DNA of 32,000 bases from an uncultured archaeon (lineage in GTDB: Archaea > Asgardarchaeota > Thorarchaeia > Thorarchaeales > Thorarchaeaceae), in contig CAYHAA010000008.1 of the NCBI GenBank assembly GCA_964354495.1, positions 90,177 through 122,176 of the forward strand, given 5' to 3'. Positions 7,961 through 27,713 of this stretch are shown here, piece after piece. The notes under the pieces were generated by a model. The model did not search any database and was not told the DNA's origin. It worked only from the letters and a program-made list of their open reading frames with translations. A program made the translations under genes and the position numbers. The stretch's first letter is position 1; each line of letters opens with the position of its first letter.

Positions 7961-8051
7961 CGATTCTGGATGTTGCTCTCAACAAGAGACCGGAATATAT
8001 GTTGTTTCCCGAATTCAGTTTGAGCCAAAGAGAGGAAAAGAAATTCGGATG

Positions 8052-8107
8052 CCTCCTCAATCCCACTTGAACTACATCTGCGTCTCTTGGGGATACGGGA
8101 AAGATTC
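8052..8107 (+). repeat. Dispersed repeat copy A (CCTCCTC-N8-TTGAACTACATCTG... core)
   Basis: 8067-8107 TTGAACTACATCTGCGTCTCTTGGGGATACGGGAAAGATTC matches 27673-27713 at 36/41 positions in direct orientation. Confidence 0.85.
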
Positions 8108-8119
8108 ATGGAATACTCT

Positions 8120-8416
8120 ATGAGCAATAGAGGAAATATCTCTAGTAGGGAAGATCTGGTAGAAAAGACAGAGGGCAAAGTCGAGCTACACATAAGAAAG
8201 AGGATGGGTTTCTCTGGATTTGCGCTTGGAGTAGCACTCTAGTTCTTTCTGATAGCCATCAGCCCTCTATTCCCTTACATCCCTCTCATGGAATATGTTC
8301 TCTGGTTCCTATTTCCACGCTATCCGTTTCCATGGAACTATATCATGATCTTCGTCACTTCTCTCATTTGGGGTTCAATACTCTATTTCATCCCCTACAA
8401 CAAGTCTAAGTTTTGA
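8120..8416 (+). pseudogene. Small membrane protein (98 codons) interrupted by one in-frame TAG at codon 41
   Basis: ATG 8120 gives MSNRG...KRMGFSGFALGVAL, then TAG 8240-8242, then FFLIAISPLFPYIPLMEYVLWFLFPRYPFPWNYIMIFVTSLIWGSILYFIPYNKSKF to TGA 8414-8416. The hydrophobic helix runs straight through the stop. Confidence 0.6.
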
Positions 8417-8597
8417 TTACGAGATCATTAGTACGCACTGGGCCACGTACTCAACTTGGAGGGATAGGCTGCAATTTAGTGGCCAATTTGGCAGTAAACA
8501 AACAGGTCTCTCCAAAAAAGAAACACGGCCATTAAGCCAGAACGCTTATGACTCTCTTTTCCTAGCTGTTTCGGCATTCAAGTGGATGCAACAAGTC

Positions 8598-8621
8598 AAG
8601 GTGATGGAATTCCATCACCTT
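8598..8621. promoter_or_regulatory. Perfect 24-bp palindrome upstream of the giant surface-protein gene
   Basis: AAGGTGATGGAA|TTCCATCACCTT is exactly self-complementary and ends 65 nt before ATG 8687. The palindrome is certain; a regulatory role is inferred. Confidence 0.55.
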
Positions 8622-8686
8622 TGGTAGTGCATTATCACATATCATTTGTTTCTTGCGCATTCATTGTATAGGTTAGTGAGGGAGAG

Positions 8687-11600
8687 ATGCAGAGTACGAA
8701 GCATGCCATAGTGGTACTTAGCGTGATCTTCATTTTCATGTTTGTAGTGTCTGACGTCTACACGGTTCAAGTCTGGTCCACTATGAAGGGGGCAGATCCC
8801 AACATACTTGAGAACGACACTGAGGCAGACATCGGCGCCCCAAGAGCAGCATTCTCACTTGCTAGCCTCGTGGAAGAGCTGATGTCAGTAACAACTGATA
8901 CCAGAGATGCCGACATTGACGGACTTGTCGATTCAATCGAGGCCATCATTGGCACCAGTCCAATCAATAATGATAGCGACTATGATAGGGTACGAGATGA
9001 TTTTGAGGTTTGGAATGGCACCGACCCATTGGAGCCTGACTCAAACTTCGATGGATTACCAGATTACTTTGAGCTGAAGGCAACAAATCCGGATGTCGAT
9101 GGCGATGGAGTCGACAATGCTTGGGATTTTGATAATGACAATGATGGCGTCAATGACGCAGCTGACATATCTCCCTTCTGTTATTCTGCTGTGCAGGACA
9201 GCTTCCATATGGAGATCGTGACTGGCGGCAATCCCACATATGTCACTCTCCAACTAAGACCACGCGACCCGGCACACCTCAAGTTGTTCTACCAATATTG
9301 GGATTGGCCTTACGACTCTCAGGGTTCTATGAAAGATATGGACTATTCAGAAGAGGACGTCAGAGCAATTCCACAACTCAATATTGCTACTGACAGCTCT
9401 CTAAGTCAGTCAGCCGTGAGCGACTATGGAATGCTTGTGACGCCAACTGGCTTCCGTATTCCCCTGAATCCCATATGGGATAATGGTGATCTGCTAGCAT
9501 TCGAGTGCAAGATATTCTTCCCGCAGTCTGCTCAGACGAGTTGGGCCATTGATATTGATATGTTTTGGAGAATTATGGGAAATACAGACATTGAGGCTGT
9601 AGCACTCGGTGCCAGCAATGGTATGTATGTAGTCCTTGGAGAAAACAATTCTGCAATCGCTGATGGTGATAATGCTCACGCTGGAACTCTACAATGGATT
9701 GACTTGGGCGATGGTAATGTCTCAATCAAGACCTTCAATGGAGCATACCTGTCACTGGCAGACAATACTACAATTGGTGTTTCGTCCATCCTTGACGATA
9801 ATGCTAGATTTGCAGTGACAGAAGTAGATGACGAAATCGCGCTCAAGGCAATCAATGGACTGTACATCACACTAAGCGAAGATAATCACCTTCTTGCTCA
9901 AGGCGATAACCTCTCTGAAGCAGAGAGATTTCATATTGTTGATTTAGGCTACCAATCAGAATGGACAACACTGGTCACATACCCTGAACCATTCATGCTC
10001 GCTGGATTCACAGTCGAAGAGAACTTTGGCTCCAATCTCGGACTATTCTATAGCTCGAACAGGGATTGTATTATCGCAGCTGACATGGTGATGACATACG
10101 AGTTCATGAGGAATGCCACGAACCTGCTAACGGACCAGTCAGGTATCCTTGCTAACAACGGCATTGACGTGGATAGCCTCTCTTCATCATTCACGCATAG
10201 AGATGAGGCATTCAAGAGCATGAGTAATGACATGCTGCCCGATGTGCTTAGGTCCCTGCCCGATGGCGAAATTCTCCCAGTCATCATTGCAAACATCGAC
10301 CGCTCACGAATTCTAGAGATGTCTGAGATTCTCTCTGGCGTGATGACGCTTGACGACTCGTTTTTCCTCAACGTCACCAGATTCCCTGTTCTGACTGTCA
10401 GGACTCTCAAAACGAATTTCTATAATACATCCAGCTTCGGAGCTCTAGCGCTCGATGATGTTATGTCTGAAGTGGTCAGCTGGGGCCTAAGTGATACAGC
10501 AACTTTCAATATCCTGACCATGATGATGAAGTGGTTTAATGGAGAGCAACTCGTTACAAGCATCGATGATATTCCATTGTCATTCGGAACGCCAGATGAT
10601 GAATGCTTCAACATGGCACAGAATATCATAATTGGTAGTCTAGAAGCATTAGGCGGTCTCTCTGAAATAGTATGGATCTGGAAAGCATTCAAAGAGATGA
10701 AGGTCCTAGAAAAAGGTGGCTTCGTGTTCAACTCAATAGTAAGGTCTCTTAAGACTGGGAGCACGAGCCTGATCGGAGCCTGGGCGAAGACGAGCACGAG
10801 CCTTGCGAAGATCAACAAGGGCTTCACAAAGGCTTTCAAATCGTTCCAAAAGGCCCTAATCGTAGCCGGGATTGTTCTCGACGTGGGCCTTTCAATCTAT
10901 GCGGCTATACTGATTGCTGATAGCATTGGAGGTCGCTTAGGATCTGAGATTGGAGCCATATATGGTGTAGCGGGCGCTGCGTTCGCAGTTGTTGGCGCAC
11001 TCCTTCTCTTTGCCATCGGGGAGATACCTTATGTGGGATGGCTAATTGCTTTGGGGCTTGTCCTTGCAGACTTGATTGGCGGCTACTCGGACAAGCTCAT
11101 AGAATGGCTCACCGGAGCTATATTCGGTGATCAGGAGGATGTGCACAAAGTTGAGCTTGCTGATCCTGGGATTGAGGTTGTGAGACCACCATCAGCGACA
11201 ACCATTGACCATGATGGGAACGGTCTTGATGTAGGAGATACAATCGAGATCATCGTGCGTTTCCGCGCAACAGTAGAGGACACAGTCAATAGTACAATTC
11301 CAGTGGACAGCTACATTAGACCATACATTCAGCTCTTCGTACCTCAGGGCGAGGTTTCATCTTCTGGATACCCTGCTGTAGATGACATGAAAGTGGAGAA
11401 GGGCGATTTCTGGAAATCAGAGACCTATGACACAGCTGCGTGGGCAACGCCCAGTCTGCCAATGGTGAATTTTCCAGTTCTGGTGTTGCTCAAGTATGAT
11501 TACAGACTTCGTTATGATTGGCGACACTTAGTCATGGGCATGGCATACTGCGATCATACAGACTGGGAGGAGGGCTCTGGTGTCGAACAACTGACTAGAT

Positions 11601-14600
11601 ATCACTTCGATATCATGCCACAGACAATTGATGACTTTGTGAGATGGGGCGGAATCAGGTTGCTTGACTCTGATGCAGATGAGTTGAAGGACTCTGAAGA
11701 GTCCTCAACAGATGTATGGAAGTACGATTCAGATGGGGACAGCCTTCGAGACAAGTACGAAATCGACTACGGCCTGGACCCGAATAATTTCGATAGTGAC
11801 GAGGATGGGCTCAGCGATAAATGGGAGCTTGTCTATGGCACTAATGCGACAATGCGTGATAGTGATGTTGACGGACTTCCAGACTATGCTGAAATTGCCG
11901 GCTGGAACATCGAGTTCAACTACACTCAGACCGAAGGTTCCGTGATTATTCCATTCACTACTCACATGTACTCGGATCCACGGAACAATGACAGTGATGC
12001 GGATGGGATCAATGACTTCATAGAATACCAGAGTGGTCTCAATCCCCAATCAAAAGACACTGATGGCGACTCTGTCTTTGATCAACCTGCTCCAGAGACC
12101 GAGACGCTGGTAGAGGAAATCTGGCAAAGGTCTGTAGGACCCACAAACGGCTTCGACGTTGACTACTGGGGCAACATACATTGCGGCTACGCATCGACCT
12201 CAGGCTCATCGATCTGGAAATTCAACCCAGGTGGGGAGGCCATCCTTAATTATGGCGCTGGGGAACTCACTCTACCAATGGCTCTAGCTACGGGAAATCA
12301 AGACACTGTCTATGTTCAGGACTGGAATATCCCCTCGATCATCCCCAAAATCTCTTTGCCCACTTATACTAACAGCATCTACCCGGCTATTGCCCTTACT
12401 CGAGATGGTAGTAGACTGGCAGTTGGCTCAAGGTATGATGATACGGTTTGGATCTATAATCGGGTCGGTTCAGAGTGGATCCTAGAGAGCACGCTTTTTT
12501 CAACAGCAGGTTCTGAGAACTTTGGGTGTTCTCTTGCATTCAGTGCGGATGGAAACACACTTGTTGTTGGAGCGCATTTGCGTGATGTTGCTTCGTTCAG
12601 TAATGGAGCCGCATATGTCTATACCAGATCTGGAACCGAATGGACTCTGAATTCTTTCCTCTCTGTATCAGACGCACACACATACCACTTCGGCTATGCA
12701 GTGGCAATTGCTGGCTCAGGAAGTATAGTTGTGGTCGGTCAGGAACGAAATATCTACATCTATGTCTATCAGAATGGGGGATATACCTTCTGTCGGAGAT
12801 ACACGGTTCCAACCACGAACAGAATTGTATCCTCTATAGCTGTCAGTGATAATGGCGCTAAGATCGCAGTGGGTGCAGAGTACCTCTATTCTGGTTCTTC
12901 TGAAGAGGCAAAGGTCTTTGTCTATGAGTACAACGGAGCAGTAGCTCAGTGGATACCTTATGAGCTGACGAGTGCAGATAGAGTCGCTGGAGACCAGTTT
13001 GGTCATGATGTTTCAATCGATAGCTCGGGCAGCATCATAGCTGCTGGCGCGCCGCACTATTCTGACCAGGGAAAAGGACCTGGATCAGTATACATCTTCA
13101 CAAAGGATGCCACATCCAATCCATGGTCACAGTCACAGATAGAAAGAACAAGACTAACAGATCCAACCGGTCGTACAGACTATTGTTTTGGGTTTTCAGT
13201 GAGGCTCAATCCAGTCGGTGATCATGTTCTAATTGGTTCACCAGGAAGAGGAAGAGGCGCAATGTTCGTCTTTGAAGAGTGTGACTCCACATGGGTGCCG
13301 CTCTCCTGGATAGATCCAATATTGGAGTCTGCGCACGGCAATTTTGGTTATTCTGTGGCAATCGATTCTACAGCGAGCCGATTGATGGGAGCTGCCATTC
13401 AGACTGATATAACTCAACCAATGCCTGTCTTTGAGTTCTCAACTGCCCCTGACCGGATAGTACGCTTTGATTCCGATGGGACAAATGCAGGAGTGTTCCT
13501 TCCCAGTCTAGCATGGGGATATTCTGCTTGGTATACGTCAGTATTTGGCATGACATCAGATTCGGATGGCTACTTGTACGTGTCATACGATGATACGGTC
13601 ATTGCGGGCATCCGAAAATACGCTCCCTCTGGTGAGTTGGTTAGCTTCATCGGTGGTGGCTGGCTTTCTCGTCCATACGGTATGGCCATTGATAATGATG
13701 GAAATATCTACGTGGCTGATAGGGGGAACAACGATGTTCTGAAGTTCTCCCCTGCTGGAGAACTGATGCCAACACCTTGGTCTGGATTCTCGGAACCTAG
13801 AGCCGTGGATGTGGACTCAGAAGGCAATATCTACGTCGCTGACACAGGAAACAATCGTGTGCTTGTGTTTGATGAAAATGGAATCCCTGTTACGTCATTC
13901 TCTTTCCCTTCGCCTATGGCGCTAAGACTGGACGACGATGGCAATCTGTATGTCGCAACTTGGGACAGACTTGCAAGGTACAGAGTCTATGAAGTATACG
14001 TTGAGATCGAACCACCAAGCGAATCCATTGACTGGGACGAGGACGGACTCATCAACGACGTAGAAACTGCAGGCTGGGACATAGTCTACGTGACCTCTGA
14101 TGGAACCTGGTTCGCTCATGTTGATAGCAGTCCGAATCAGGAAGATACTGATCTTGATGGGCTCTCCGACCTACAAGAATGGGAGCTGGGTAGTAATCCA
14201 CGATTGGGGGACACCGACAAGGATGGGTTGGATGACCACTTCGAATGGTCAAATGGCCTAAACATTACAGACTTCGATACCGATGGAGAAATGCTGGATG
14301 ATGGTACAGAGTTGACCTTTGGTAGCAGTCCTCTTCTACGAGATACAGACTTTGATGGCACAGATGACCACATCGAGTTCTTACACGGCACCAATCCACT
14401 GGCGATTGACACTGATCGTGATGATGCGAATGACACTGAGGAATTGAGGGTTGGGTCAGAGCCGCTCTCACCCGACTCAGACAGTGACTTTGTCTTTGAT
14501 GGTGCTGAACTTGACCAAGGCACAGATCCTGTCAATGGTGATAGTGATGCGGACTTCATCGAAGATGGTCTAGAAGGCATCATGGGCACTAACCCACTCT

Positions 14601-16186
14601 CTAATGATACAGATGGGGACAATGTGACGGATTTCGTGGAGATTGCTCTGGGTCTCAATCCTGTATCAAATGACACAGACGGAGATAATATCCCGGACAA
14701 TGTTGAGCTGATAGGGGGTACGAACCCTCGGAGCAATGACACAGACAATGATGGCATTCCAGATGGTCTTGACTCAGACTCACTATCCGATATCTCCGGT
14801 CGAATAATCCTCGTCTGTGATGACCTCAGTGACCCAGAAGTTGCGGCATTTGTTGACAACGTAATGGAATATCACAATGCAATCATTACGGATAGAGAAG
14901 GCCTTCTGGCCAACTATACAGATGACCCCTGGATTGTATTGATAGGAGCGCCCTCGCCCGATAATGAAACCGTGGGCAATCTCATTTTCACTCTGTTAGA
15001 AGACTCTCCGGATGTGTTGCAAGCCATGATAGAATCCGGTGGGAACCACATCGCTGTAAGATATGGAGTATGGAATGAGACTCAGACGGTCGTCATGCTC
15101 TCACAGGTGACGCCTCAAGATGTCTATCCTGTTCTTCAAGCATTAAAGGAGAAGAACGTCACCCTGAATGGGGACACTATCATTGTTGAGTTTCCATTAC
15201 TCACTAATACAGAGCATATTGTGAACATCTTTCTGCAACTTGATGACATTGACGTAGTGAAGACGACCGATTCAATGGCAATGGTGGCGTTCACAGAACC
15301 GGTACAACCGACATTCATTATGAGAGCCTATAATGAGTCTACGACTCCCTCTCAGCTAACAGATGCAACTGGGTTGGAAACTTACAGTGAACCTATGGGC
15401 AAGTATCTTGAGATCGACCTGAGTATTGAGGGGTCTGGTGATGCACCGGTTGACTCAGCGATAATAAGGATTTACTACAGGGAATCCGAGCTTGACCGAA
15501 CCGGCGATGAACTGGCAACTGATATTGAGGACCTCAATGAGACCACTCTTGCTCTCTACTTCTATGATGAGGCTGCTGGACTGTGGATCAGACTCCATGA
15601 GGGTCTTGATTGGGTCATAGCCACTGGTGTGAACACCACTGATGTGTATCTCTATGGCGAAGTCTATGCTGGATATGTCTGGGCGCATGTGCGACACCTC
15701 TCACTGTACAGCATCGCTGGCATGACGCACAATCGTCCCCCCGATGTCTCAGGCGCGTATCCGAGCATCGAGTTCCTCTGGCCGCCGAACGGAAGATTCG
15801 CCGGTATAACGATAGAGGGTGTCTTTGACCCAGATGGTGACAATGTGACCATCACGATACTGAACATAACAAGTGATGAGTCTGTTGGATGTCGCCCAGA
15901 TGCATATGGGGTGGGCACTGATACCGCTTGGCTTCGAGCTGAGAGAGATGGACGTGGCAATGGTAGGGTCTACGAGATCACTTTCTTGGCCTCTGATGGG
16001 CGAGGAGGTGAAACAGTGAGTTCAGTGTTCGTCTATGTACCGCACCACAGGCACAGATGTGGCTTTGTGATACCCATAGATGACGGACAGAACTACGACG
16101 CCACTCAAGGATGGCGTCCCATACACTGGCGATGGTGGCACTGCTTTGGCTTCCGGCATTGTCATGGCTGTCATAGACTCAGGTAG
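8687..16186 (+). CDS. Giant secreted mosaic protein (2499 aa): signal peptide, TSP3-like Ca-binding repeats, fascin-like beta-trefoil, hydrophobic helical segment, FG-GAP propeller, NHL repeats, archaeal surface-protein domain, WPPN Ig-like domain
   Basis: Hydrophobic N-terminus. About 22 DxDxDGxxD-type repeats in three blocks (~8900-9170, ~11660-12080, ~14030-14780). Three x-L-K/G-x-x-N-G-x-Y units (~9600-9950). F-G-x-S/A-V/L-A-I repeats (~12370-13420). P-x-G/A-x-A-x-D-x-D/E-GNIYVAD-x-GN repeats (~13450-13990). C-terminal LWPPN...LRAERDG...GRVY. SD GAGGGAGAG upstream. Confidence 0.88.
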   Translation: MQSTKHAIVVLSVIFIFMFVVSDVYTVQVWSTMKGADPNILENDTEADIGAPRAAFSLASLVEELMSVTTDTRDADIDGLVDSIEAIIGTSPINNDSDYDRVRDDFEVWNGTDPLEPDSNFDGLPDYFELKATNPDVDGDGVDNAWDFDNDNDGVNDAADISPFCYSAVQDSFHMEIVTGGNPTYVTLQLRPRDPAHLKLFYQYWDWPYDSQGSMKDMDYSEEDVRAIPQLNIATDSSLSQSAVSDYGMLVTPTGFRIPLNPIWDNGDLLAFECKIFFPQSAQTSWAIDIDMFWRIMGNTDIEAVALGASNGMYVVLGENNSAIADGDNAHAGTLQWIDLGDGNVSIKTFNGAYLSLADNTTIGVSSILDDNARFAVTEVDDEIALKAINGLYITLSEDNHLLAQGDNLSEAERFHIVDLGYQSEWTTLVTYPEPFMLAGFTVEENFGSNLGLFYSSNRDCIIAADMVMTYEFMRNATNLLTDQSGILANNGIDVDSLSSSFTHRDEAFKSMSNDMLPDVLRSLPDGEILPVIIANIDRSRILEMSEILSGVMTLDDSFFLNVTRFPVLTVRTLKTNFYNTSSFGALALDDVMSEVVSWGLSDTATFNILTMMMKWFNGEQLVTSIDDIPLSFGTPDDECFNMAQNIIIGSLEALGGLSEIVWIWKAFKEMKVLEKGGFVFNSIVRSLKTGSTSLIGAWAKTSTSLAKINKGFTKAFKSFQKALIVAGIVLDVGLSIYAAILIADSIGGRLGSEIGAIYGVAGAAFAVVGALLLFAIGEIPYVGWLIALGLVLADLIGGYSDKLIEWLTGAIFGDQEDVHKVELADPGIEVVRPPSATTIDHDGNGLDVGDTIEIIVRFRATVEDTVNSTIPVDSYIRPYIQLFVPQGEVSSSGYPAVDDMKVEKGDFWKSETYDTAAWATPSLPMVNFPVLVLLKYDYRLRYDWRHLVMGMAYCDHTDWEEGSGVEQLTRYHFDIMPQTIDDFVRWGGIRLLDSDADELKDSEESSTDVWKYDSDGDSLRDKYEIDYGLDPNNFDSDEDGLSDKWELVYGTNATMRDSDVDGLPDYAEIAGWNIEFNYTQTEGSVIIPFTTHMYSDPRNNDSDADGINDFIEYQSGLNPQSKDTDGDSVFDQPAPETETLVEEIWQRSVGPTNGFDVDYWGNIHCGYASTSGSSIWKFNPGGEAILNYGAGELTLPMALATGNQDTVYVQDWNIPSIIPKISLPTYTNSIYPAIALTRDGSRLAVGSRYDDTVWIYNRVGSEWILESTLFSTAGSENFGCSLAFSADGNTLVVGAHLRDVASFSNGAAYVYTRSGTEWTLNSFLSVSDAHTYHFGYAVAIAGSGSIVVVGQERNIYIYVYQNGGYTFCRRYTVPTTNRIVSSIAVSDNGAKIAVGAEYLYSGSSEEAKVFVYEYNGAVAQWIPYELTSADRVAGDQFGHDVSIDSSGSIIAAGAPHYSDQGKGPGSVYIFTKDATSNPWSQSQIERTRLTDPTGRTDYCFGFSVRLNPVGDHVLIGSPGRGRGAMFVFEECDSTWVPLSWIDPILESAHGNFGYSVAIDSTASRLMGAAIQTDITQPMPVFEFSTAPDRIVRFDSDGTNAGVFLPSLAWGYSAWYTSVFGMTSDSDGYLYVSYDDTVIAGIRKYAPSGELVSFIGGGWLSRPYGMAIDNDGNIYVADRGNNDVLKFSPAGELMPTPWSGFSEPRAVDVDSEGNIYVADTGNNRVLVFDENGIPVTSFSFPSPMALRLDDDGNLYVATWDRLARYRVYEVYVEIEPPSESIDWDEDGLINDVETAGWDIVYVTSDGTWFAHVDSSPNQEDTDLDGLSDLQEWELGSNPRLGDTDKDGLDDHFEWSNGLNITDFDTDGEMLDDGTELTFGSSPLLRDTDFDGTDDHIEFLHGTNPLAIDTDRDDANDTEELRVGSEPLSPDSDSDFVFDGAELDQGTDPVNGDSDADFIEDGLEGIMGTNPLSNDTDGDNVTDFVEIALGLNPVSNDTDGDNIPDNVELIGGTNPRSNDTDNDGIPDGLDSDSLSDISGRIILVCDDLSDPEVAAFVDNVMEYHNAIITDREGLLANYTDDPWIVLIGAPSPDNETVGNLIFTLLEDSPDVLQAMIESGGNHIAVRYGVWNETQTVVMLSQVTPQDVYPVLQALKEKNVTLNGDTIIVEFPLLTNTEHIVNIFLQLDDIDVVKTTDSMAMVAFTEPVQPTFIMRAYNESTTPSQLTDATGLETYSEPMGKYLEIDLSIEGSGDAPVDSAIIRIYYRESELDRTGDELATDIEDLNETTLALYFYDEAAGLWIRLHEGLDWVIATGVNTTDVYLYGEVYAGYVWAHVRHLSLYSIAGMTHNRPPDVSGAYPSIEFLWPPNGRFAGITIEGVFDPDGDNVTITILNITSDESVGCRPDAYGVGTDTAWLRAERDGRGNGRVYEITFLASDGRGGETVSSVFVYVPHHRHRCGFVIPIDDGQNYDATQGWRPIHWRWWHCFGFRHCHGCHRLR
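14030..14780 (+). repeat. Tandem coding repeat block: about 11 Ca-binding DTDxDG-type units with ~23-aa period
   Basis: DWDEDGLIND, DTDLDGLSD, DTDKDGLDD, DTDGEMLDD, DTDFDGTDD, DTDRDDAND, DSDSDFVFD, DSDADFIED, DTDGDNVTD, DTDGDNIPD, DTDNDGIPD, most followed by E-x-x-x-G-T/S-N/D-P. Confidence 0.85.
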
Positions 16187-20167: not shown

Positions 20168-21331
20168 ATGTTGAGAATAGCTTATGTGAGCAGCTATACA
20201 CCCAGAGAGTGTGGAATAGCCACTTTCACTGAGGACTTGACAAAGAGCATAGACGCTCTCCACGTATTGGAACCTGCAGCTATTATTGGCATAAATGACT
20301 CAGGCTCATCCTATAACTATGGAAAAGAAGTAGTGACGCAAATTGATGCGACTGATGAAACGACCTATCACCAAGTAGCTGATCTAATCAACGGTTCAGA
20401 TTTCGATTTGGTAAATGTGCAGCATGAGTTTGGACTTTTCGGTGGAGATTGGGGGAATTATCTCTTGACCTTCCTCGAAAGACTGAGCAAGCCTAGCATT
20501 ACTACAATGCACACAACACTCTCACCCGATTCGAGGATATTCCAGTCGCCTGAAAGTATTGCAGCTCATAACAAGGTGGTGAAGGGGATAGGGCGATACA
20601 GCTCTGCCATTACAGTCATGACGAAGATGGCGGCAAACATCCTCAGAGAAAACTATGATGTCGATGCAGATAAAATCCGGATTATTCCACATGGAACCCC
20701 TCCTATACCATCTGTGCCAAGCGAGCTGGCAAAAGATGCCTTGGGCTTGAATGGGCGAATTGTCTTGTCCACCTTCGGGCTCTTAAGTCGAGATAAGGGA
20801 ATTCAAAATGCAATCAAAGCTCTGCCAGAACTCGTCAAAGAGTGGCCCGACATACTCTATCTGGTAATTGGAGCGACTCATCCACAAGTTAGACTGCATG
20901 AAGGCGAGAAATACAGAAACCGACTAGTCCGTTTGGTGAAGAGATTAAAGTTAGAGAACAATGTCAAGTTCCACAATCGCTTTGTGACCCAAGATGAACT
21001 AATTCAATACTTACGGGGTACGGATGTTTATATTTGCCCTTATATCAACGTGGATCAACTCTCAAGTGGGACAGTGACTTATGCACTAGGGGCCGGAAGA
21101 GCCATTGTTTCCACTCCCTTTTACTACGCTACAGAAGTTTTGGCTGAGGGTCGGGGATTACTTTGCAAATTTAAAAGTCCCAGTTCCATTACCGAAAGCA
21201 TCAGACAACTCCTAGAAAACCCTGGACAGAGAGCACGTATTGAGAAGCTGGCATATGAGTACGGTCAGGAAATGACATGGCCCAAAGTGGCTTCGAAATA
21301 TGCTTCTTTATTTAAAGAAGTGATTCAGTAG
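20168..21331 (+). CDS. GT4 glycosyltransferase (mannosyltransferase-like subfamily)
   Basis: SSYTPRECGIATFT, VQHEFGLFGG, TTMHT, IPHG, TFGLLSRDKGI, GATHP, SSGTVTYALGAG. Confidence 0.88.
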   Translation: MLRIAYVSSYTPRECGIATFTEDLTKSIDALHVLEPAAIIGINDSGSSYNYGKEVVTQIDATDETTYHQVADLINGSDFDLVNVQHEFGLFGGDWGNYLLTFLERLSKPSITTMHTTLSPDSRIFQSPESIAAHNKVVKGIGRYSSAITVMTKMAANILRENYDVDADKIRIIPHGTPPIPSVPSELAKDALGLNGRIVLSTFGLLSRDKGIQNAIKALPELVKEWPDILYLVIGATHPQVRLHEGEKYRNRLVRLVKRLKLENNVKFHNRFVTQDELIQYLRGTDVYICPYINVDQLSSGTVTYALGAGRAIVSTPFYYATEVLAEGRGLLCKFKSPSSITESIRQLLENPGQRARIEKLAYEYGQEMTWPKVASKYASLFKEVIQ

Positions 21332-21339
21332 AGAGGAGG

Positions 21340-22389
21340 GTGGACTCTATCAAACTTCCTTCTATCAGCGTTGGTTGGCTACAAGATTTGACCGATGACA
21401 CAGGTATATTCCAACACACAAAAGCCTCGATTGCTGACAGGAGAGAAGGATATACTACTGACGATAATGCTCGTGCTCTCATAGCTGCCCTCAAATATCA
21501 TAGATTAAGCGGAGATGAACAAGCTATGACCCTTGCACGGACCTATCTGAGCTTTCTTCTCCATATGCAGAAGGAAGATGGGCGGGTTCACAACTTCCTT
21601 GGATACAGTCGCAGCTTTCTCGATGAAGAGGGGTCGGAAGACTCACTCGGTCGGGTTCTTTGGGCCTGTGGATATTCTCAAGATGCGCTGATTTCTGATG
21701 ATTTAAGAATGATAGCGAATGAGATTTTCGACAAGAGCTTGATTTGGGCGTTGAGGTCTGGTTCGCCTAGAACACATGCCTATGCCATCCTGGGTCTTTA
21801 TCACTATGTTAAGGCATTCCCTCAAGACAAGAACCTTCCGTTGAATGTGATTCATCTGGCTGATCGCCTCTGTGAAGCTTACAGGCATGAATCTACAGAG
21901 TCGTGGCAATGGTTCGAGCCAAACCTTACGTATGCAAATGCTCGACTTCCTCATGCACTTTTCAGGGCATATCAGATAACCGGAAAGCAAGACTATCTCA
22001 TCATCGCTGAGAAGACTTTCGAGTTTCTTGTATCGACGGTTATTATTCATGATATGTTCCAACCAGTAGGCAATCGGTCCTGGCAGAGAAGAGGAGGAAA
22101 AAAGACGCTCTATGATCAACAGCCAATTGAAGCATCATGTATGGTGGAAGCGGCTTCCACAGCATTTCAGGTAACTGGAAAGAAGCAATACTCCAAAACT
22201 GCACGCATTGCATTTGATTGGTTCATGGGAAAGAACTCAAAGAACATAATGGTCTATAATCCCGCCACTGGCGGTTGTTTTGACGGGATTACACCTGAAG
22301 GGCTCAACATAAACCAGGGGGCGGAGTCAGGTCTCTCCTATCTCTTGGCCCGTCTTGAGATGGAGACTCTGCATAAGAATGAGCCATAG
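21340..22389 (+). CDS. Six-hairpin (alpha/alpha)6 glycosidase-like protein, usual C-terminal partner of this GT4 subfamily
   Basis: TDDTGIFQH, GYTTDDNARAL, SEDSLGR, LTYANARLPHAL, DQQPIEA, GCFDG...NQGAES. GTG start with GAGGAGG, 8 nt after the GT4 stop. Confidence 0.75.
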   Translation: MDSIKLPSISVGWLQDLTDDTGIFQHTKASIADRREGYTTDDNARALIAALKYHRLSGDEQAMTLARTYLSFLLHMQKEDGRVHNFLGYSRSFLDEEGSEDSLGRVLWACGYSQDALISDDLRMIANEIFDKSLIWALRSGSPRTHAYAILGLYHYVKAFPQDKNLPLNVIHLADRLCEAYRHESTESWQWFEPNLTYANARLPHALFRAYQITGKQDYLIIAEKTFEFLVSTVIIHDMFQPVGNRSWQRRGGKKTLYDQQPIEASCMVEAASTAFQVTGKKQYSKTARIAFDWFMGKNSKNIMVYNPATGGCFDGITPEGLNINQGAESGLSYLLARLEMETLHKNEP

Positions 22390-22415
22390 TGTTCAATCGG
22401 AAAAGCCGAACTCAA

Positions 22416-23300
22416 CTAGGGAAGAAGCTCTCCCAGGTCGTATTCGGCTCCACAGACTACGGAATCAGCACCACCATAATAGACAAGAAGCTTGTCATCC
22501 AACATGACGCTCCCACAGCTAAACACGACATTAGGCACCTTGCCAAACCTTTCATAGTCCTCACTTGGTTCCAATATTGGTTTTTCCGAACGATAGAGTA
22601 TGTTCTCCGGGTTCTCCTTGTCAATCAAGAGAGCGCCGAGACGATAGACGTAGTTATAATCCACCCCATGATATATGAAAAGCCAGCCCTCATTCACTTC
22701 GATGGGCGGTCCTGCTGATCCGACCTTGAGGCAGTCCCAACTATCGTTTCTGGGCTCCATCACTGCCTTGATATTGCACCATCGTTTCAGGTCGTCGGAA
22801 TATGCTATGCATAAATAGGGTTCAAGACGGTGATACATCACATAACGCCCGTCTATTTTCTTTGGGAATATCACTGCATTCTTGTTGAGGATGCCATCAA
22901 AAGGTAACCATCTCTCTCCCCAGTTCCAATCGTTTGATATCAAGTCTTCCAGAGATATCTTTGTTATAGAAACTTGATACGCGTTACTGGGATAACTCCT
23001 GTAGGCCGTGTAGGTCATCAGGCATTCTCCGTCCATTTGTGTGAGACGCGGGTCTTCACACCCTAGATTCTCACAGGAACTTGCCGGAGCAAAAGCTGGT
23101 TCGGGCTGTCGCGTGTCAATCGAATATCCATCCGAAGAACTCGCGTATCCCAAACGTGACACTCCATCGTCTCCCATGGCACGATAAAGGATATGGACTT
23201 TATCTCCTGCATAGAGGGCGGCTGCATTGAATACTTCTCGATTTTGCCAATAATGACCTTGTACTGGCTCGAGGATTGGATTATTACTAAACCGCTTCAT
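22416..23300 (-). CDS. GH130-family beta-mannoside phosphorylase/glycosidase
   Basis: VFNAAA, GCEDPRLT, NKNAVIFPKKIDGRYVMYHR, GPPI, YHGV, VPNVVFSCG, YYGGADS (five-bladed propeller family). Confidence 0.88.
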   Translation of the reverse strand: MKRFSNNPILEPVQGHYWQNREVFNAAALYAGDKVHILYRAMGDDGVSRLGYASSSDGYSIDTRQPEPAFAPASSCENLGCEDPRLTQMDGECLMTYTAYRSYPSNAYQVSITKISLEDLISNDWNWGERWLPFDGILNKNAVIFPKKIDGRYVMYHRLEPYLCIAYSDDLKRWCNIKAVMEPRNDSWDCLKVGSAGPPIEVNEGWLFIYHGVDYNYVYRLGALLIDKENPENILYRSEKPILEPSEDYERFGKVPNVVFSCGSVMLDDKLLVYYGGADSVVCGAEYDLGELLP

Positions 23301-23332
23301 TAGTTTCTCTCCTAGTGGTATGTCAAGGTTTT

Positions 23333-23722
23333 CTAGGTTTTGACTGACTGCATATCATGGACTTCATCCAAGATTATTCTTAAACTGAGGAGGCCGATAA
23401 GATGCCCCTGCTTATCAGTCACTGGCAAATGTCGTATATTATGAGATTTCATGATATTTTTTGCCTCTGCGAAGGAAGCTCCCTTTTCGACAGTCTTGAG
23501 ATTGGTCGTCATGACCTCCTTGAGCGGTGTACTCAATGGAATATCAGAAGCTACGACTCTAATAGCGTCTCGTTCTGTGAATATTCCCTTGCACTTCCTC
23601 TCCTTATCGATTATAACAATCGAACCAATATGCTTGACATAAAGGATGTGAATCGCCTCTTTGATAGAGATATCTCCCGAAGCCGTTACTACATCTTCAA
23701 TCATCATACCGTTAATCTTCAA
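23333..23722 (-). CDS. CBS-domain pair protein
   Basis: Two CBS units: IGSIVII...GIFTERD and IRHLPVTD...GLLS. TTG start. Confidence 0.88.
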   Translation of the reverse strand: MKINGMMIEDVVTASGDISIKEAIHILYVKHIGSIVIIDKERKCKGIFTERDAIRVVASDIPLSTPLKEVMTTNLKTVEKGASFAEAKNIMKSHNIRHLPVTDKQGHLIGLLSLRIILDEVHDMQSVKT

Positions 23723-23912
23723 TCAACCATTCCTCTCATCCGTTGCTTGCTAGATAGGGGTATTTAACATGATGGTAGGGTTAACCTACATTGTAAGGGT
23801 AATCCCTTTCAACATCTCTCTCTAGTTGAGACTCAGGTCCGAATATTAGACACACATTGTAGTCGGGTACAACAAGCTACATCTTTTATCTCTTGCATCA
23901 TTACTAGAATGT

Positions 23913-24566
23913 ATGGAAAAAGGGAAATATCTCACAGCTGCTATGATAGTTGCGCATCCTGATGATGAAACGATCTGGGCTGGAGGGACTGTGCTCATCC
24001 ACTCGGACTGGCATTGGACAATTGTATCGCTCTGTCGTGGAAGCGACACAGATCGGGTGCCAAAATTCATTCGCGCTGTCCAGCAACTTGGCGGAGTTAG
24101 TGAGATTGGTGATCTCGATGATGGAACTGAGCAATTGCCTCTATCAGAAGCTGATGTACAGCAAATGGTGCTCTCCTTATTGCCTGAAAAGCATTTTGAC
24201 CTTATCCTAACCCACAGTCCACATGGAGAATACACACGGCATCGACGCCACGAAGAAATCGGGACAGCAGTTGCTTTACTATGGGAGAGAGAACTGATTA
24301 AAGCAAAAGAGGTCTGGATGTTCGCTTATGAGGATGGTGGAAAGGGTGGTAAGGATGATCTCCCTAAAGCGATTAAGACGGCACATCTGATATCATACTT
24401 GCCTGAGGACATATGGCTAAGGAAATATACTATCGTTAATGACATATACGGCTTTGCTCCTGGGACATATGAAGCTGATATCATCATGAGAGAAGAAGCG
24501 TTCTGGTGTTTCCAATCCCCTGTTGAATTCCGAAAATGGTTAAAAACGAAGAGGAGCAAACGATGA
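23913..24566 (+). CDS. PIG-L/LmbE-family deacetylase-like protein
   Basis: VAHPDDE metal motif and LTHSPHGEYTRHRRH (variant of TH...HxDH). Confidence 0.8.
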   Translation: MEKGKYLTAAMIVAHPDDETIWAGGTVLIHSDWHWTIVSLCRGSDTDRVPKFIRAVQQLGGVSEIGDLDDGTEQLPLSEADVQQMVLSLLPEKHFDLILTHSPHGEYTRHRRHEEIGTAVALLWERELIKAKEVWMFAYEDGGKGGKDDLPKAIKTAHLISYLPEDIWLRKYTIVNDIYGFAPGTYEADIIMREEAFWCFQSPVEFRKWLKTKRSKR

Positions 24567-25705
24567 GGGTACTAGTACTATACGACTTTCCACCTCCCCC
24601 TGGAGGACTGGCAACCCAAGGTGACCTACTCTACAAGGGACTCAAAGAATTAGGGATTGACGCTCAAGCGGTTCATTATTCTTCTGCACAGGAAAAGGAA
24701 TGGTACTACCGCTGGTTCAAACCGGATATAGTTGTGGGAGTGGGCTACTGGGGAAATACGCCTGATCTGGTTCTCCATGCTCAGCGGTATGGGGCCCTGC
24801 CGGTGCCCTGGCTGGTGGCCGATGGCTATGTAGCGAATTATCAGGAGATCCTTAACGCACTGCCTCTCATTCTGGTCACATCGCAATGGGTTAAAGATGT
24901 CTACAAACGCGATGGTCTGCACGGTAAGAATATAGAGGTTTTACCTGTCGGAGTAGACACTGAATCCTTCGTGCCACGTGACAAGAGTGAACAGAAAGTG
25001 GCCTGTGTCCGTGACGCATTAGGCGTTAAGCCTGAAGACATTATGATTCTTACTGTAGGCGGAGATGCCGCATCCAAAGGCGCACAGGAAGTGATGCAAG
25101 CTCTGGCGATTATTGATGGCAAAGCGCCGAACTGGAAATACGTGTGCAAGGTCTGGCCACAGCCCAGGACCTTGCAGCAGAACCTCATGGATCTTCAGCT
25201 AGCGACCTCCCTCGGCATAGTGGACAAGGTGATTTACACAACTAACATCGTTTCGCGGAATTTCATGCCTTACCTTCTGAATGCATGTGACATTTACGCT
25301 GCTCCCTCAAGGTTAGAGGGATTCGGAATGCCGCAAGTTGAGGCAGGAGCCTGCTGCAAGCCGGTAGTTTCTATCAAAGCTATGGCCATGCTTGACACAC
25401 TAGTCCATGGTGAAACAGCTTTCTTGGCTGATATCGCCATGGAGGTCGTGATGAACGAAACAACTGTCGGGGAGGAGTCTGGCTGGGAGTCAGGGCATAG
25501 GATAGTCTTTCAGTATCCGCACACGGTCGATTATCGGGCCAGTGTTCATGATATAGCTGACTACCTGTTGACTCTCATGCAAGATGAGAAACTGCGACGG
25601 CGGATGGGGGAAGCGGGGAGGAGAAGAGTGGTAGAGAACTATGACTACCGAATTGTAGCAAAAAAGTTTGTTCAGCTCATTTCGGAAAAACTGGGGATTA
25701 AATGA
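24563..25705 (+). CDS. GT4 glycosyltransferase
   Basis: PPPPGG, GVDT, and the EX7E motif EGFGMPQVE. Start at ATG 24563 overlaps the deacetylase stop (ATGA). Confidence 0.88.
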   Translation: MRVLVLYDFPPPPGGLATQGDLLYKGLKELGIDAQAVHYSSAQEKEWYYRWFKPDIVVGVGYWGNTPDLVLHAQRYGALPVPWLVADGYVANYQEILNALPLILVTSQWVKDVYKRDGLHGKNIEVLPVGVDTESFVPRDKSEQKVACVRDALGVKPEDIMILTVGGDAASKGAQEVMQALAIIDGKAPNWKYVCKVWPQPRTLQQNLMDLQLATSLGIVDKVIYTTNIVSRNFMPYLLNACDIYAAPSRLEGFGMPQVEAGACCKPVVSIKAMAMLDTLVHGETAFLADIAMEVVMNETTVGEESGWESGHRIVFQYPHTVDYRASVHDIADYLLTLMQDEKLRRRMGEAGRRRVVENYDYRIVAKKFVQLISEKLGIK

Positions 25706-25706
25706 G

Positions 25707-26867
25707 ATGAAAGAAGAACAATGGGCTACCATTCGGGAAGCCAAGGAAGCCGCCTTGGAGGTCTTGCTGCACAATGCCCGAGGTCCGTACCACTCACTGC
25801 CTAGAGCCGCGGGATGGGGGTACCCAGAGCCTTACACCCGTGATCTCTTAATCTCCGGGCTAGGCATACTAACCTGCGGGAACCAAAGGTTGATGGCAAT
25901 TCTGCGACGTGTACTCCAGACGCTAGCTAGAAATCAAAGCCATTTGGGACAAATTCCGGTACTTGTTCATGACCCAAATGAACTTAATTCAAGCGATTCA
26001 ACACCACTTTTTCTTCTAGTCGTCGGTCTATATAGAAAGGTAACCGGGGACGCCAACTTCCTTGATGATGCGGTACAGAAAGCGATGACATGGATGGAAT
26101 ACCAAAGTCCGGCGAATGAAGTAATGGTGGCCCAATTGCCAACCAGTGATTGGCGAGATGAGCAATGGATATTGGGGTACGGGCTTTTTGTGAATACCAT
26201 AGTTTTCAGTTATCTTCTCCTGCACAATCAAACCAAGAGAGCCTCTAGGATTCAGGGCGAGATGAACAAGCCCCAAAAAGGGTTGGCACCCCGTCAAAAA
26301 CCATATTATGCTGCCTGGGTGTATAAAGTCCTCAGTGACGAGCATTTCGACCTCTTAGGCAACAGCTTGGCTATCCTCTCAGGTCTCGCCTCTCCGTCGA
26401 GAGCCAAAAGAATAGTTACATGGATTGAGCGTGAATGTCAGACAATGCGTGAACAAGGCCAGCTGGCGCTTGACCTCTCTCCCAATTATTTCCCCTACAT
26501 TCATCCAGAGGATCGAGATTGGCATCCCAGGTACGCTACGTTCAATCTTCCTGGTGAATATCATAACGGAGGAGTCTGGCCCTTCGTTTGCGGTTTCCAC
26601 GTAGCTGCAATTGTGGCAACAGGTAAGATTTCTTTGGCTGAGAAAAAACTGCTCGCACTAACCGAACTGGTTCGCCCGTCACGTGAAGTTAATGTTGACT
26701 TCGGCTTCAATGAATGGTTTCGCGCCCAAGATGGTACGCCAAGAGGGCAAGACTGGCAGAGTTGGTCAGCGGCGATGTATCTGTACGCCGCGGTTTCGGT
26801 CGAACAAAGACAAACCCCGTTTTTTGACGAAATTCGAAGTTTCTCACGAAAAGGGTTTTCTGAATGA
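25707..26867 (+). CDS. GH100-like / amylo-alpha-1,6-glucosidase-like six-hairpin glycoside hydrolase
   Basis: YPEPYTRD, SSDSTPLF, DWRDE, FDLLGNSLAIL, YHNGGVWPF, FNEW, QSWSAAMYL. ATG 25707 lies 1 nt after the GT4 stop. Confidence 0.72.
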   Translation: MKEEQWATIREAKEAALEVLLHNARGPYHSLPRAAGWGYPEPYTRDLLISGLGILTCGNQRLMAILRRVLQTLARNQSHLGQIPVLVHDPNELNSSDSTPLFLLVVGLYRKVTGDANFLDDAVQKAMTWMEYQSPANEVMVAQLPTSDWRDEQWILGYGLFVNTIVFSYLLLHNQTKRASRIQGEMNKPQKGLAPRQKPYYAAWVYKVLSDEHFDLLGNSLAILSGLASPSRAKRIVTWIERECQTMREQGQLALDLSPNYFPYIHPEDRDWHPRYATFNLPGEYHNGGVWPFVCGFHVAAIVATGKISLAEKKLLALTELVRPSREVNVDFGFNEWFRAQDGTPRGQDWQSWSAAMYLYAAVSVEQRQTPFFDEIRSFSRKGFSE

Positions 26868-27655: not shown

Positions 27656-27713
27656 CCTCTCTCGTATTCATTTTGAACTACATCTGCTTCTCTTGGCGAT
27701 ATGGAAAACATTC
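27656..27713 (+). repeat. Dispersed repeat copy C
   Basis: CCTCTCTCG-N8-TTGAACTACATCTGCTTCTCTTGGCGATATGGAAAACATTC; the 41-nt core is 36/41 identical to 8067-8107. Confidence 0.85.

Follow-up and report, generated by a model that had tools for sequence, protein, structure and literature searches.

In this work we describe a giant protein encoded in a 32,000-nucleotide stretch of DNA from an uncultured archaeon of the family Thorarchaeaceae (GenBank assembly GCA_964354495.1, contig CAYHAA010000008.1, positions 90,177 to 122,176; the whole stretch is called the window below). Judged from its sequence, this protein of 2499 residues belongs to a closed, uncharacterised and mainly archaeal family of giant surface proteins. 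It is probably an integral membrane protein, held by an anchor in the middle of the chain and exposing two ectodomains. The role that we lean towards is that of a resident, multi-pass surface protein that depends on calcium to adhere to, or to recognise, glycans, surfaces or partner cells. The safest reading is more modest: a new family of modular adhesin-like proteins, with no claim to a new mechanism.

The giant protein and its family

The open reading frame (ORF) is real and intact over its 2499 codons. The first-pass annotation of the window, which was made from the letters and their translations, had named a chimeric assembly as the finding that would overturn its reading of this ORF. A chimera is ruled out, because full-length relatives at 80%, 64% and 63% identity (97-100% coverage), with the same length and the same order of parts, stem from independent ENA and JGI assemblies. 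In addition, a congeneric genome holds a 94%-identical fragment of the protein. The frame opens with an ATG that has a purine-rich stretch just upstream, and the GC content varies little along the gene (0.45-0.50). The source genome (3.3 Mb, 97.7% complete) has one copy of it.

A search with the whole protein returned 430 relatives. Those that carry a name come from Thorarchaeota, Sifarchaeia, Helarchaeota, Bathyarchaeia, Thermoplasmatota, Methanolobus and Methanosarcinaceae. Full-text searches of the literature found no published description of this family, which is consistent with the earlier remark that no characterised archaeal protein has this architecture.

We defined the family by a repeat-free core, residues 430-1010 of the giant protein (581 residues). 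Searched against 1.84 billion representatives, the core matched 149 clusters (50% identity), 131 of them at E ≤ 1e-10. These 131 align over the whole 581-residue query, and the core occupies a similar position in proteins of 1800-3700 residues; many of the shorter matches look like fragments. The members share a collinear core composed of an alpha/beta domain, a block of hydrophobic helices and a beta-sandwich with long strands. Outside the core the conservation is uneven. A coverage map of 119 relatives has two conserved regions, residues 50-1150 and 1600-2350, and between them a variable stretch (residues 1150-1600) that few relatives share. The flanking calcium-repeat blocks and the C-terminal region (residues 2050-2345) are covered by about 104-116 of the 119.

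The core has no convincing fold match in the PDB. Pfam has no model for it (residues 422-671 and 816-1010), for the N-terminal beta-sandwich or for the C-terminal region, and running the unassigned parts separately against Pfam and NCBIfam gave no matches. Two AlphaFold2 (AF2) models were built with a 34-sequence alignment: model 1 covers residues 150-1020 with a mean predicted local distance difference test score (pLDDT) of 79, and model 2 covers residues 422-1010 with a mean pLDDT of 76. Along the chain, the models predict a beta-sandwich and then a trefoil flanked by very long strands. A 20-residue beta-hairpin and an alpha/beta domain follow, and after them a Lys-rich stretch of low confidence, four helices and a further beta-sandwich. 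The four helices lie at residues 716-813 (pLDDT about 60) and the last sandwich, whose strands are 24-25 residues long, begins two residues after the last of them. Foldseek and VIA searches with model 1 returned only trefoils. With the trefoil-free model 2, nothing was better than a Foldseek E-value of 4.8e-3 or a VIA Z of 6.8, and these matches were generic Ig-like sandwiches and helical hairpins. In the ESM Atlas the core scored 0.82, which is the level of noise, and the C-terminus gave no usable match. We treat the core as having no recognised structural relative. The alpha/beta domain (residues 441-656) is barely sampled in the fold-match lists, and we make no claim of a new fold.

The family is patchily distributed. 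The core query found it in 4 of the 14 genomes of the genus and, across a sample of 201 genomes from the phylum, in 7, each of which belongs to the family of the source genome. A related genome holds two paralogues head to tail, 69% identical (L012, G155:C25: 7309-14055 and 14561-20002), which suggests local duplication and diversification. Further afield, the cultured methanogen Methanolobus psychrophilus R15 has a homologue, AFV25350.1, annotated as 'ricin B lectin'.

Membrane topology

The hydropathy profile has a hydrophobic block at residues 719-801, where the first reading of the sequence had noted a hydrophobic helical region. Hydrophobic helices are found at the equivalent position throughout the family and, in the subclade of the giant protein, they include a Gly-zipper-like GGxxGxxxGxxxG stretch. 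The loop before the strongly hydrophobic helices is rich in Lys (residues 667-721). It carries a net charge of +8 over 55 residues here, the sole basic stretch of an extremely acidic protein. Among 56 aligned members the loop is net positive in 53 (mean +6.3), while the overall net charges of these proteins range from -129 to -314. Under the positive-inside rule, a loop on the cytoplasmic side should be basic, as this one is, and we provisionally place it there.

The two ends of the chain bear on how often it crosses the membrane. The N-terminus is signal-like, much as had been proposed, with a Lys/His n-region followed by a hydrophobic h-region at residues 7-27; a cleavage site is a candidate only. 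An N-terminal hydrophobic segment is present in 120 of the 156 full-length relatives. At the other end, half of these relatives (78 of 156) have a C-terminal transmembrane (TM) helix. The 15 residues that follow this helix have a net charge of +2.6, compared with -1.3 before it, and the charge is higher after than before in 69 of the 78, which fits an orientation with the N-terminal side out and the C-terminal side in. Because of this orientation, the roughly 1200-1700 residues between the central block and the C-terminal TM helix would be extracellular. Their content of TSP3, NHL, PKD and lectin modules, and the enrichment of glycosylation sequons, agree with that placement. Given an exported N-terminus and an extracellular downstream region, the number of central helices is therefore expected to be even. 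The central block probably crosses the membrane four times, at residues 645-666, 722-746, 755-778 and 781-801. A solution with two helices and an interfacial or re-entrant segment is a possible alternative. Under both solutions the protein would be integral to the membrane and expose two ectodomains.

Two points weigh against the four-helix solution. The first helix, TM1 (residues 645-666), is clearly hydrophobic in many relatives and only moderately so here, with a mean of 0.79 and Glu residues within it. Furthermore, the AF2 confidence is about 60 over the helices and falls below 50 over the Lys-rich loop. That said, the first-pass description of the protein as secreted is not supported, and neither is the absence of a membrane anchor, given the conserved hydrophobic block, the basic loop in 53 of 56 members and the N-out, C-in helices of 78 relatives. 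A mid-chain anchor between two ectodomains is the more probable design.

The ends of some relatives vary further. PGF- or PEF-like ends occur in eight members, including Methanosarcinales and Thorarchaeota. In three members named as Helarchaeota (P0040, P0044 and P0047), the C-terminal TM helix is followed by a DUF4332/helix-hairpin-helix domain of about 160 residues. A giant surface protein would then bear a nucleic-acid-binding type of fold in the cytoplasm.

The helix block invites a different explanation. Hydrophobic, Gly-rich helices in the middle of a very acidic chain, flanked by beta-strands of 20-25 residues, could belong to an antagonistic protein, secreted or displayed on the surface, whose helices are shielded by the long strands and then inserted into a target membrane. 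This would be akin to the delivery regions of large bacterial toxins or to colicin/VasX-type pore formers, with the lectin and propeller modules as receptor binders. The giant protein itself lacks a C-terminal TM helix, as such a protein might. The ESM Atlas look-alikes of the core include a cluster with VasX_N in 21% of its members, although the score of 0.82 is reached by about one third of shuffles, and the weak matches listed by Foldseek include beta-pore-forming toxins (E about 7e-3, TM-scores below 0.31). However, no match of fold or feature rises above noise, the best of them (Foldseek E 4.8e-3; VIA Z 6.8) being generic. The conserved basic loop is what a resident membrane protein should have, and in half of the family a C-terminal TM helix or a PGF-type anchor ties the protein to the membrane of the cell that makes it. 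Comparison of five loci found no immunity-like or other conserved neighbour gene. Polymorphic and contact-dependent toxin systems combine a variable C-terminal toxin domain with an adjacent immunity gene, whereas the giant protein ends in a conserved Ig-like module. We regard an antagonistic role as distinctly unlikely. The first-pass annotation had left the choice between a calcium-stiffened adhesin and a secreted antagonistic protein; the former idea holds, and the latter has no positive support in the form of a toxin or enzyme domain or an immunity-like neighbour, and the variable parts of the protein are binding modules.

A more speculative idea, and in our view about as improbable, is that the mid-chain block and its long-stranded beta-scaffold form a novel type of regulated membrane-insertion device. 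The protein would use its lectin and propeller modules to dock on another cell and would afterwards drive helices into the membrane of that cell, in the service of killing, fusion or a syntrophic junction. If true, this would be the first contact-dependent system of its kind in Asgard and methanogenic archaea, with a fold that has no solved relative.

Calcium repeats and the trefoil

Three blocks of calcium-binding DxDxDG repeats had been read from the sequence, and all three are there. In total, we count 22 TSP3-type DxDxDGxxDxxE units with a 22-residue period, at residues 74-160, 994-1135 and 1782-2030. The strict motif DxDxD[GD] occurs 13 times, compared with 0.57 times in shuffled sequences. 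The giant protein itself matches Pfam TSP3_bac (PF18884) below the cut-off (E 6e-4, 20 bits against 25), and members of the family match it with E-values down to 9e-41. The many N-x-S/T sequons noted earlier also amount to a genuine enrichment: there are 29, against 17.7 ± 3.6 in shuffles, and one shuffle in 1000 reached 29.

This composition recalls the giant calcium-dependent adhesins of bacteria, and the CglD and MtsD proteins of Myxococcus (NF033765 and NF047639). They too are very large, acidic, modular and extracellular, with a stalk of calcium repeats that displays ligand-binding modules. The giant protein matches CglD and MtsD at the level of the repeats, with E-values of 1e-23 and 5e-16. 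However, the scores of 83 bits against a cut-off of 400, and of 58 against 800, place it outside both families. Adhesins of this type are lipoproteins or are held at one end, whereas the giant protein has a conserved helix block in mid-chain, two ectodomains and a core without a Pfam model.

Size, acidity, calcium repeats and sequon enrichment are also typical of archaeal envelope proteins. The giant protein might accordingly be a structural element, an S-layer-like canopy or a glycocalyx scaffold, that forms an anchored, calcium-stiffened coat on a possibly wall-less cell. The PGF-type ends of some relatives resemble those of S-layer glycoproteins, and cultured Asgard archaea are reported to be wall-less with a membrane 'decorated with proteins' (PMC13716822). 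That said, the patchy distribution described above is hard to square with an essential coat. A single gene copy with a fast-evolving, exchangeable apex also speaks against this reading. An S-layer protein would be expected almost throughout its lineage and should match a known family; the giant protein matches no known S-layer family in Pfam or NCBIfam. We consider an envelope role unlikely.

The AF2 model of the trefoil (residues 301-421) superimposes on fascin with a VIA Z of 21.7 and a root-mean-square deviation of 1.4 Å over 122 residues, and Foldseek matches the fold with an E-value of 3e-10. A profile of the family matches fascin with an E-value of 2e-17. The single sequence reaches Pfam Fascin (PF06268) only weakly (E 1.3e-3, 19.3 against a cut-off of 23.1), and relatives exceed the Pfam thresholds for Fascin, FRG1 and DUF7910. 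These results bear out the fascin-like trefoil that was first proposed. The comparison with Fascin/FRG1/CBM92-type trefoils concerns this one domain. Fascin is a cytosolic actin bundler with four trefoils. The giant protein has a single one, extracellular, and its place within a beta-hairpin brings it closer to a lectin or a carbohydrate-binding module.

The apex propellers

The proposed apex of the giant protein holds two kinds of propeller repeat, both of which had been recognised from the sequence. Pfam FG-GAP_2 matches three stretches (E 4e-17), in which we count about seven units by eye. Pfam NHL (PF01436) matches with an E-value of 6e-16 (58 bits against a cut-off of 20), and the sensor propeller of PknD with an E-value of 1e-30. 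A hidden Markov model (HMM) of the NHL blades of the family places half-blades at residues 1175-1184 and 1197-1212, before the FG-GAP region, and a complementary half at residues 1589-1599, right after it. Further full or partial blades lie at residues 1621, 1663, 1704 and 1743. Relatives without FG-GAP realign on both sides of the FG-GAP region; in the inter-repeat alignment, the rows of P0010 and P0030 are the informative ones. Since NHL half-blades flank the FG-GAP region and relatives that lack it realign on either side, the FG-GAP propeller appears to lie inside the NHL region, and one propeller may be nested within another. Two observations count against such nesting. The half-blade matches are weak (E 0.02-0.4), and in the alignment the relatives hold further NHL blades at the site of the insert.

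Across the family, the apex is where modules are exchanged. At residues 1150-1600 the relatives have ricin-type lectins, PKD domains, FG-GAP, NHL or additional propeller blades. FG-GAP is absent from most of them; it is a lineage-specific insert limited to a few relatives, and it is found nowhere else in the source genome. Among close kin it is also the most divergent domain, with 66%, 40% and 47% identity compared with 80%, 64% and 63% overall. In the same comparison, conservation is highest in the calcium repeats and the terminal module.

The first-pass annotation had called this region integrin-like. The type of propeller repeat justifies the term and little else does, as FG-GAP is an insert of this lineage and not a feature of the family. 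The giant protein appears to share with integrin alpha a set of about seven FG-GAP-type repeats on a surface protein, and it has calcium sites elsewhere in its chain. However, a motif scan found no DxDxDG-type loop between residues 1136 and 1781, and the giant protein lacks the thigh and calf legs of integrin alpha and its single C-terminal TM helix with a cytoplasmic tail. No match to integrin-beta (PF00362) was found in the source genome, although control genomes gave none either, so this is weak evidence.

The resemblance to PknD, which extends to an extracytoplasmic location, raises the possibility of a transmembrane sensor or receptor. The propellers would bind a ligand, and the helix bundle would pass the signal on to the Lys-rich loop or, where relatives have one, to a cytoplasmic domain at the C-terminus. 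Three points speak for this reading: the sensor domain of PknD is the nearest match of the NHL propeller, the membrane-spanning block is conserved, and the DUF4332/helix-hairpin-helix domain of the Helarchaeota relatives lies where an output domain might be expected. The giant protein, in contrast to PknD, has neither a kinase nor any other recognisable output domain, and its NHL region is interrupted by the FG-GAP propeller. The cytoplasmic part would consist of about 55 residues that are poorly conserved and modelled with low confidence, and no signalling gene is conserved next to the gene. This is the least probable of the readings that we have weighed.

The C-terminus

Residues 2050-2345 had been labelled an archaeal surface-protein-like domain. 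We could not confirm this label, as the region has no match in Pfam, NCBIfam or PDB sequences, and a PDB sequence search with the C-terminal 460 residues found nothing below an E-value of 0.19. The region itself is widely conserved in the family. It also occurs in P0270, a protein of 928 residues on a 384-kb contig that combines Pfam MFS-transporter domains with TSP3 repeats and matches the region at 43% identity over 99% of the query part. Either P0270 is fused to a 12-helix transporter, or gene calling has merged separate genes.

The chain continues with a strongly conserved module of about 120 residues, marked by the motifs WPPN, VPHxxx (for example VPHDQ) and DDGQxYDAT. The first reading had described it as a WPPN Ig-like domain. 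The module is real, and the Ig label has a weak match to Big_9 (E 0.35) behind it. Neither Pfam nor NCBIfam has a model specific to it. The module closes many otherwise unrelated extracellular proteins of archaea and bacteria, 500-900 residues long (P0295-P0368), which carry propellers, vWA or integrin-beta-like domains, PKD domains or prenyltransferase-like repeats. For example, a vWA protein with the name Candidatus Electrothrix has a C-terminus that matches it at 59% identity. Between archaeal and bacterial proteins the identity of the module is about 60%. In most complete matches the chain stops about five residues after YDAT. In the giant protein and its nearest kin a further tail of about 26 residues follows. 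It abounds in Trp, His, Arg and Cys, and its composition is conserved while its sequence is not. This tail could bind the membrane interface or a metal.

As had been reported, the giant protein lacks both a C-terminal TM helix and a PGF motif. Among the 156 full-length members, 78 end in a TM helix only, 51 in the Ig-like module only, none in both and 27 in neither; some of the last group have dockerin-like or SLH-like ends. Because the module and the C-terminal TM helix never occur together in the family, the module is a candidate surface-retention element. This choice-of-anchor pattern suggests that it holds the C-terminus at the cell surface, and the WPPN...DDGQxYDAT module may be an unrecognised retention or docking domain. 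There are reasons for caution. A Fisher test gives p = 3e-21 for the alternation, which is overstated as related sequences are not independent. In addition, the module occurs once in the source genome, so that the alternation pattern is the whole basis for an anchoring role. With a single genomic copy, a dedicated sorting pathway is therefore unlikely in this organism, and a genome-wide sorting role for the module has no support there.

The comparison with the PGF-CTERM substrates of archaeosortases is a partial one. Like those substrates, some Methanosarcinales and Thorarchaeota members of the family have a hydrophobic tail of the PGF/PEF type at their end, with basic residues after it. The giant protein instead ends in the WPPN...DDGQxYDAT module and its Trp/His/Arg/Cys tail.

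Proposed arrangement and function

These observations can be assembled into a model of the protein at the cell surface. The signal-like N-terminus would export ectodomain 1, which comprises five calcium repeats, a beta-sandwich, the fascin-type trefoil, held out by long beta-hairpins at their far end, and the alpha/beta domain. An even number of membrane crossings would follow, in all likelihood four (residues 645-801), leaving the Lys-rich loop of about 55 residues in the cytoplasm. Ectodomain 2, of about 1700 residues, would rise on a calcium-repeat stalk, show the NHL propeller with the FG-GAP propeller inside it at the apex, and return on a second and longer calcium-repeat stalk. It would end in the family-specific region, the Ig-like module and the cationic aromatic tail, in place of the C-terminal TM helix or PGF-type anchor of half of the family. 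A TM helix, a PGF-type end or the Ig-like module would fasten the far end of ectodomain 2 to the surface again, and we infer from this a two-point 'arch' attachment. Fast-evolving, exchangeable modules at the apex would set the specificity.

We favour a binding role in view of the lectin-type fold of the trefoil, of the ricin, PKD, FG-GAP and NHL modules that relatives have in the variable region, and of the divergence of FG-GAP, the highest of any domain among close kin. Cultured Asgard archaea have been reported to be wall-less and decorated with unidentified surface proteins that may mediate contacts between cells or between cells and substrates (PMC13716822). Little is known about the cell covering of these archaea or about how they attach to partners, and the family provides a concrete candidate in Thorarchaeota and in other archaea of anoxic sediments. 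The design is unusual, with its anchor of helices in mid-chain, two huge ectodomains, exchangeable apex modules and alternative C-terminal anchors. As the family is present in the cultured M. psychrophilus R15, both its topology and its function are open to experiment.

Features of the gene and its neighbourhood

The features of the gene are collected in Table 1.

Table 1. Features of the giant gene and its product. Positions are those of the window.
Feature	Residues	Window position	Strand	Evidence
Complete ORF, 2499 residues plus stop (P0001)	1-2499	8687..16186	+	Single open frame; full-length relatives at 80/64/63% identity
Signal-like segment (hydrophobic 7-27)	1-30	8687..8776	+	Kyte-Doolittle peak 2.54
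TSP3-type calcium-repeat block 1, 5 units	74-160	8906..9166	+	Motif scan
Family-specific beta-sandwich	166-300	9182..9586	+	AF2 model 1, pLDDT about 90; no Pfam match
Fascin/FRG1-type beta-trefoil	301-421	9587..9949	+	Structure and profile matches to fascin
Long beta-hairpin and family-specific alpha/beta domain	422-640	9950..10606	+	AF2 models 1 and 2, pLDDT 85-95; no Pfam match, no PDB fold match listed
Candidate TM1 (moderately hydrophobic) and Lys-rich loop (net +8)	645-666; 667-721	10607..10849	+	Charge profile; AF2 pLDDT <50
Three strongly hydrophobic helices and amphipathic helix to residue 813	722-746, 755-778, 781-801; to 813	10850..11125	+	Hydropathy; helices in AF2 models
Membrane-proximal beta-sandwich, strands of 24-25 residues	816-985	11132..11641	+	AF2 pLDDT 80-90; only generic Ig-like matches, best Z 6.8
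TSP3-type calcium-repeat block 2, 6 units	994-1135	11666..12091	+	Motif scan
NHL-type partial blades ahead of insert	1150-1212	12134..12322	+	Blade HMM half-blades 1175-1184, 1197-1212; individual E-values weak
FG-GAP propeller, about 7 repeat units, putatively inside NHL region	1213-1588	12323..13450	+	Pfam FG-GAP_2 E 4e-17
NHL blades after insert	1589-1775	13451..14011	+	Pfam NHL E 6e-16; PknD E 1e-30
TSP3-type calcium-repeat block 3, 10-11 units	1782-2030	14030..14776	+	Motif scan; repeat-level NCBIfam matches to CglD, MtsD
Family-specific C-terminal region	2050-2345	14834..15721	+	Covered by about 104/119 relatives
Terminal Ig-like module with WPPN and DDGQxYDAT motifs	2349-2473	15731..16105	+	Sequence conservation
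Trp/His/Arg/Cys-rich tail (5 R, 5 H, 4 W, 3 C)	2474-2499	16106..16183	+	Composition

The gene appears to be monocistronic. It is preceded by a non-coding gap of about 660 nucleotides (window 8024-8686), and the GC content falls from about 0.53 to 0.45 at this boundary. The local neighbours are ordinary metabolic genes, encoding SurE, SDR, MaoC dehydratase, phosphomannomutase and glycosyltransferase proteins, and comparison of the window with four related loci showed no conserved neighbour. Further downstream lies a cluster of glycan-related genes (window 20168-26867) with GT4 glycosyltransferases, a GH130 phosphorylase, a GH88/GH127-like protein and an LmbE-type deacetylase ORF. This cluster may be linked to glycosylation of the giant protein. 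Finally, a 41-nucleotide direct repeat, 88% identical, lies in the intergenic gap upstream of the giant gene (window 8067-8107) and again 19.6 kb downstream (27673-27713).

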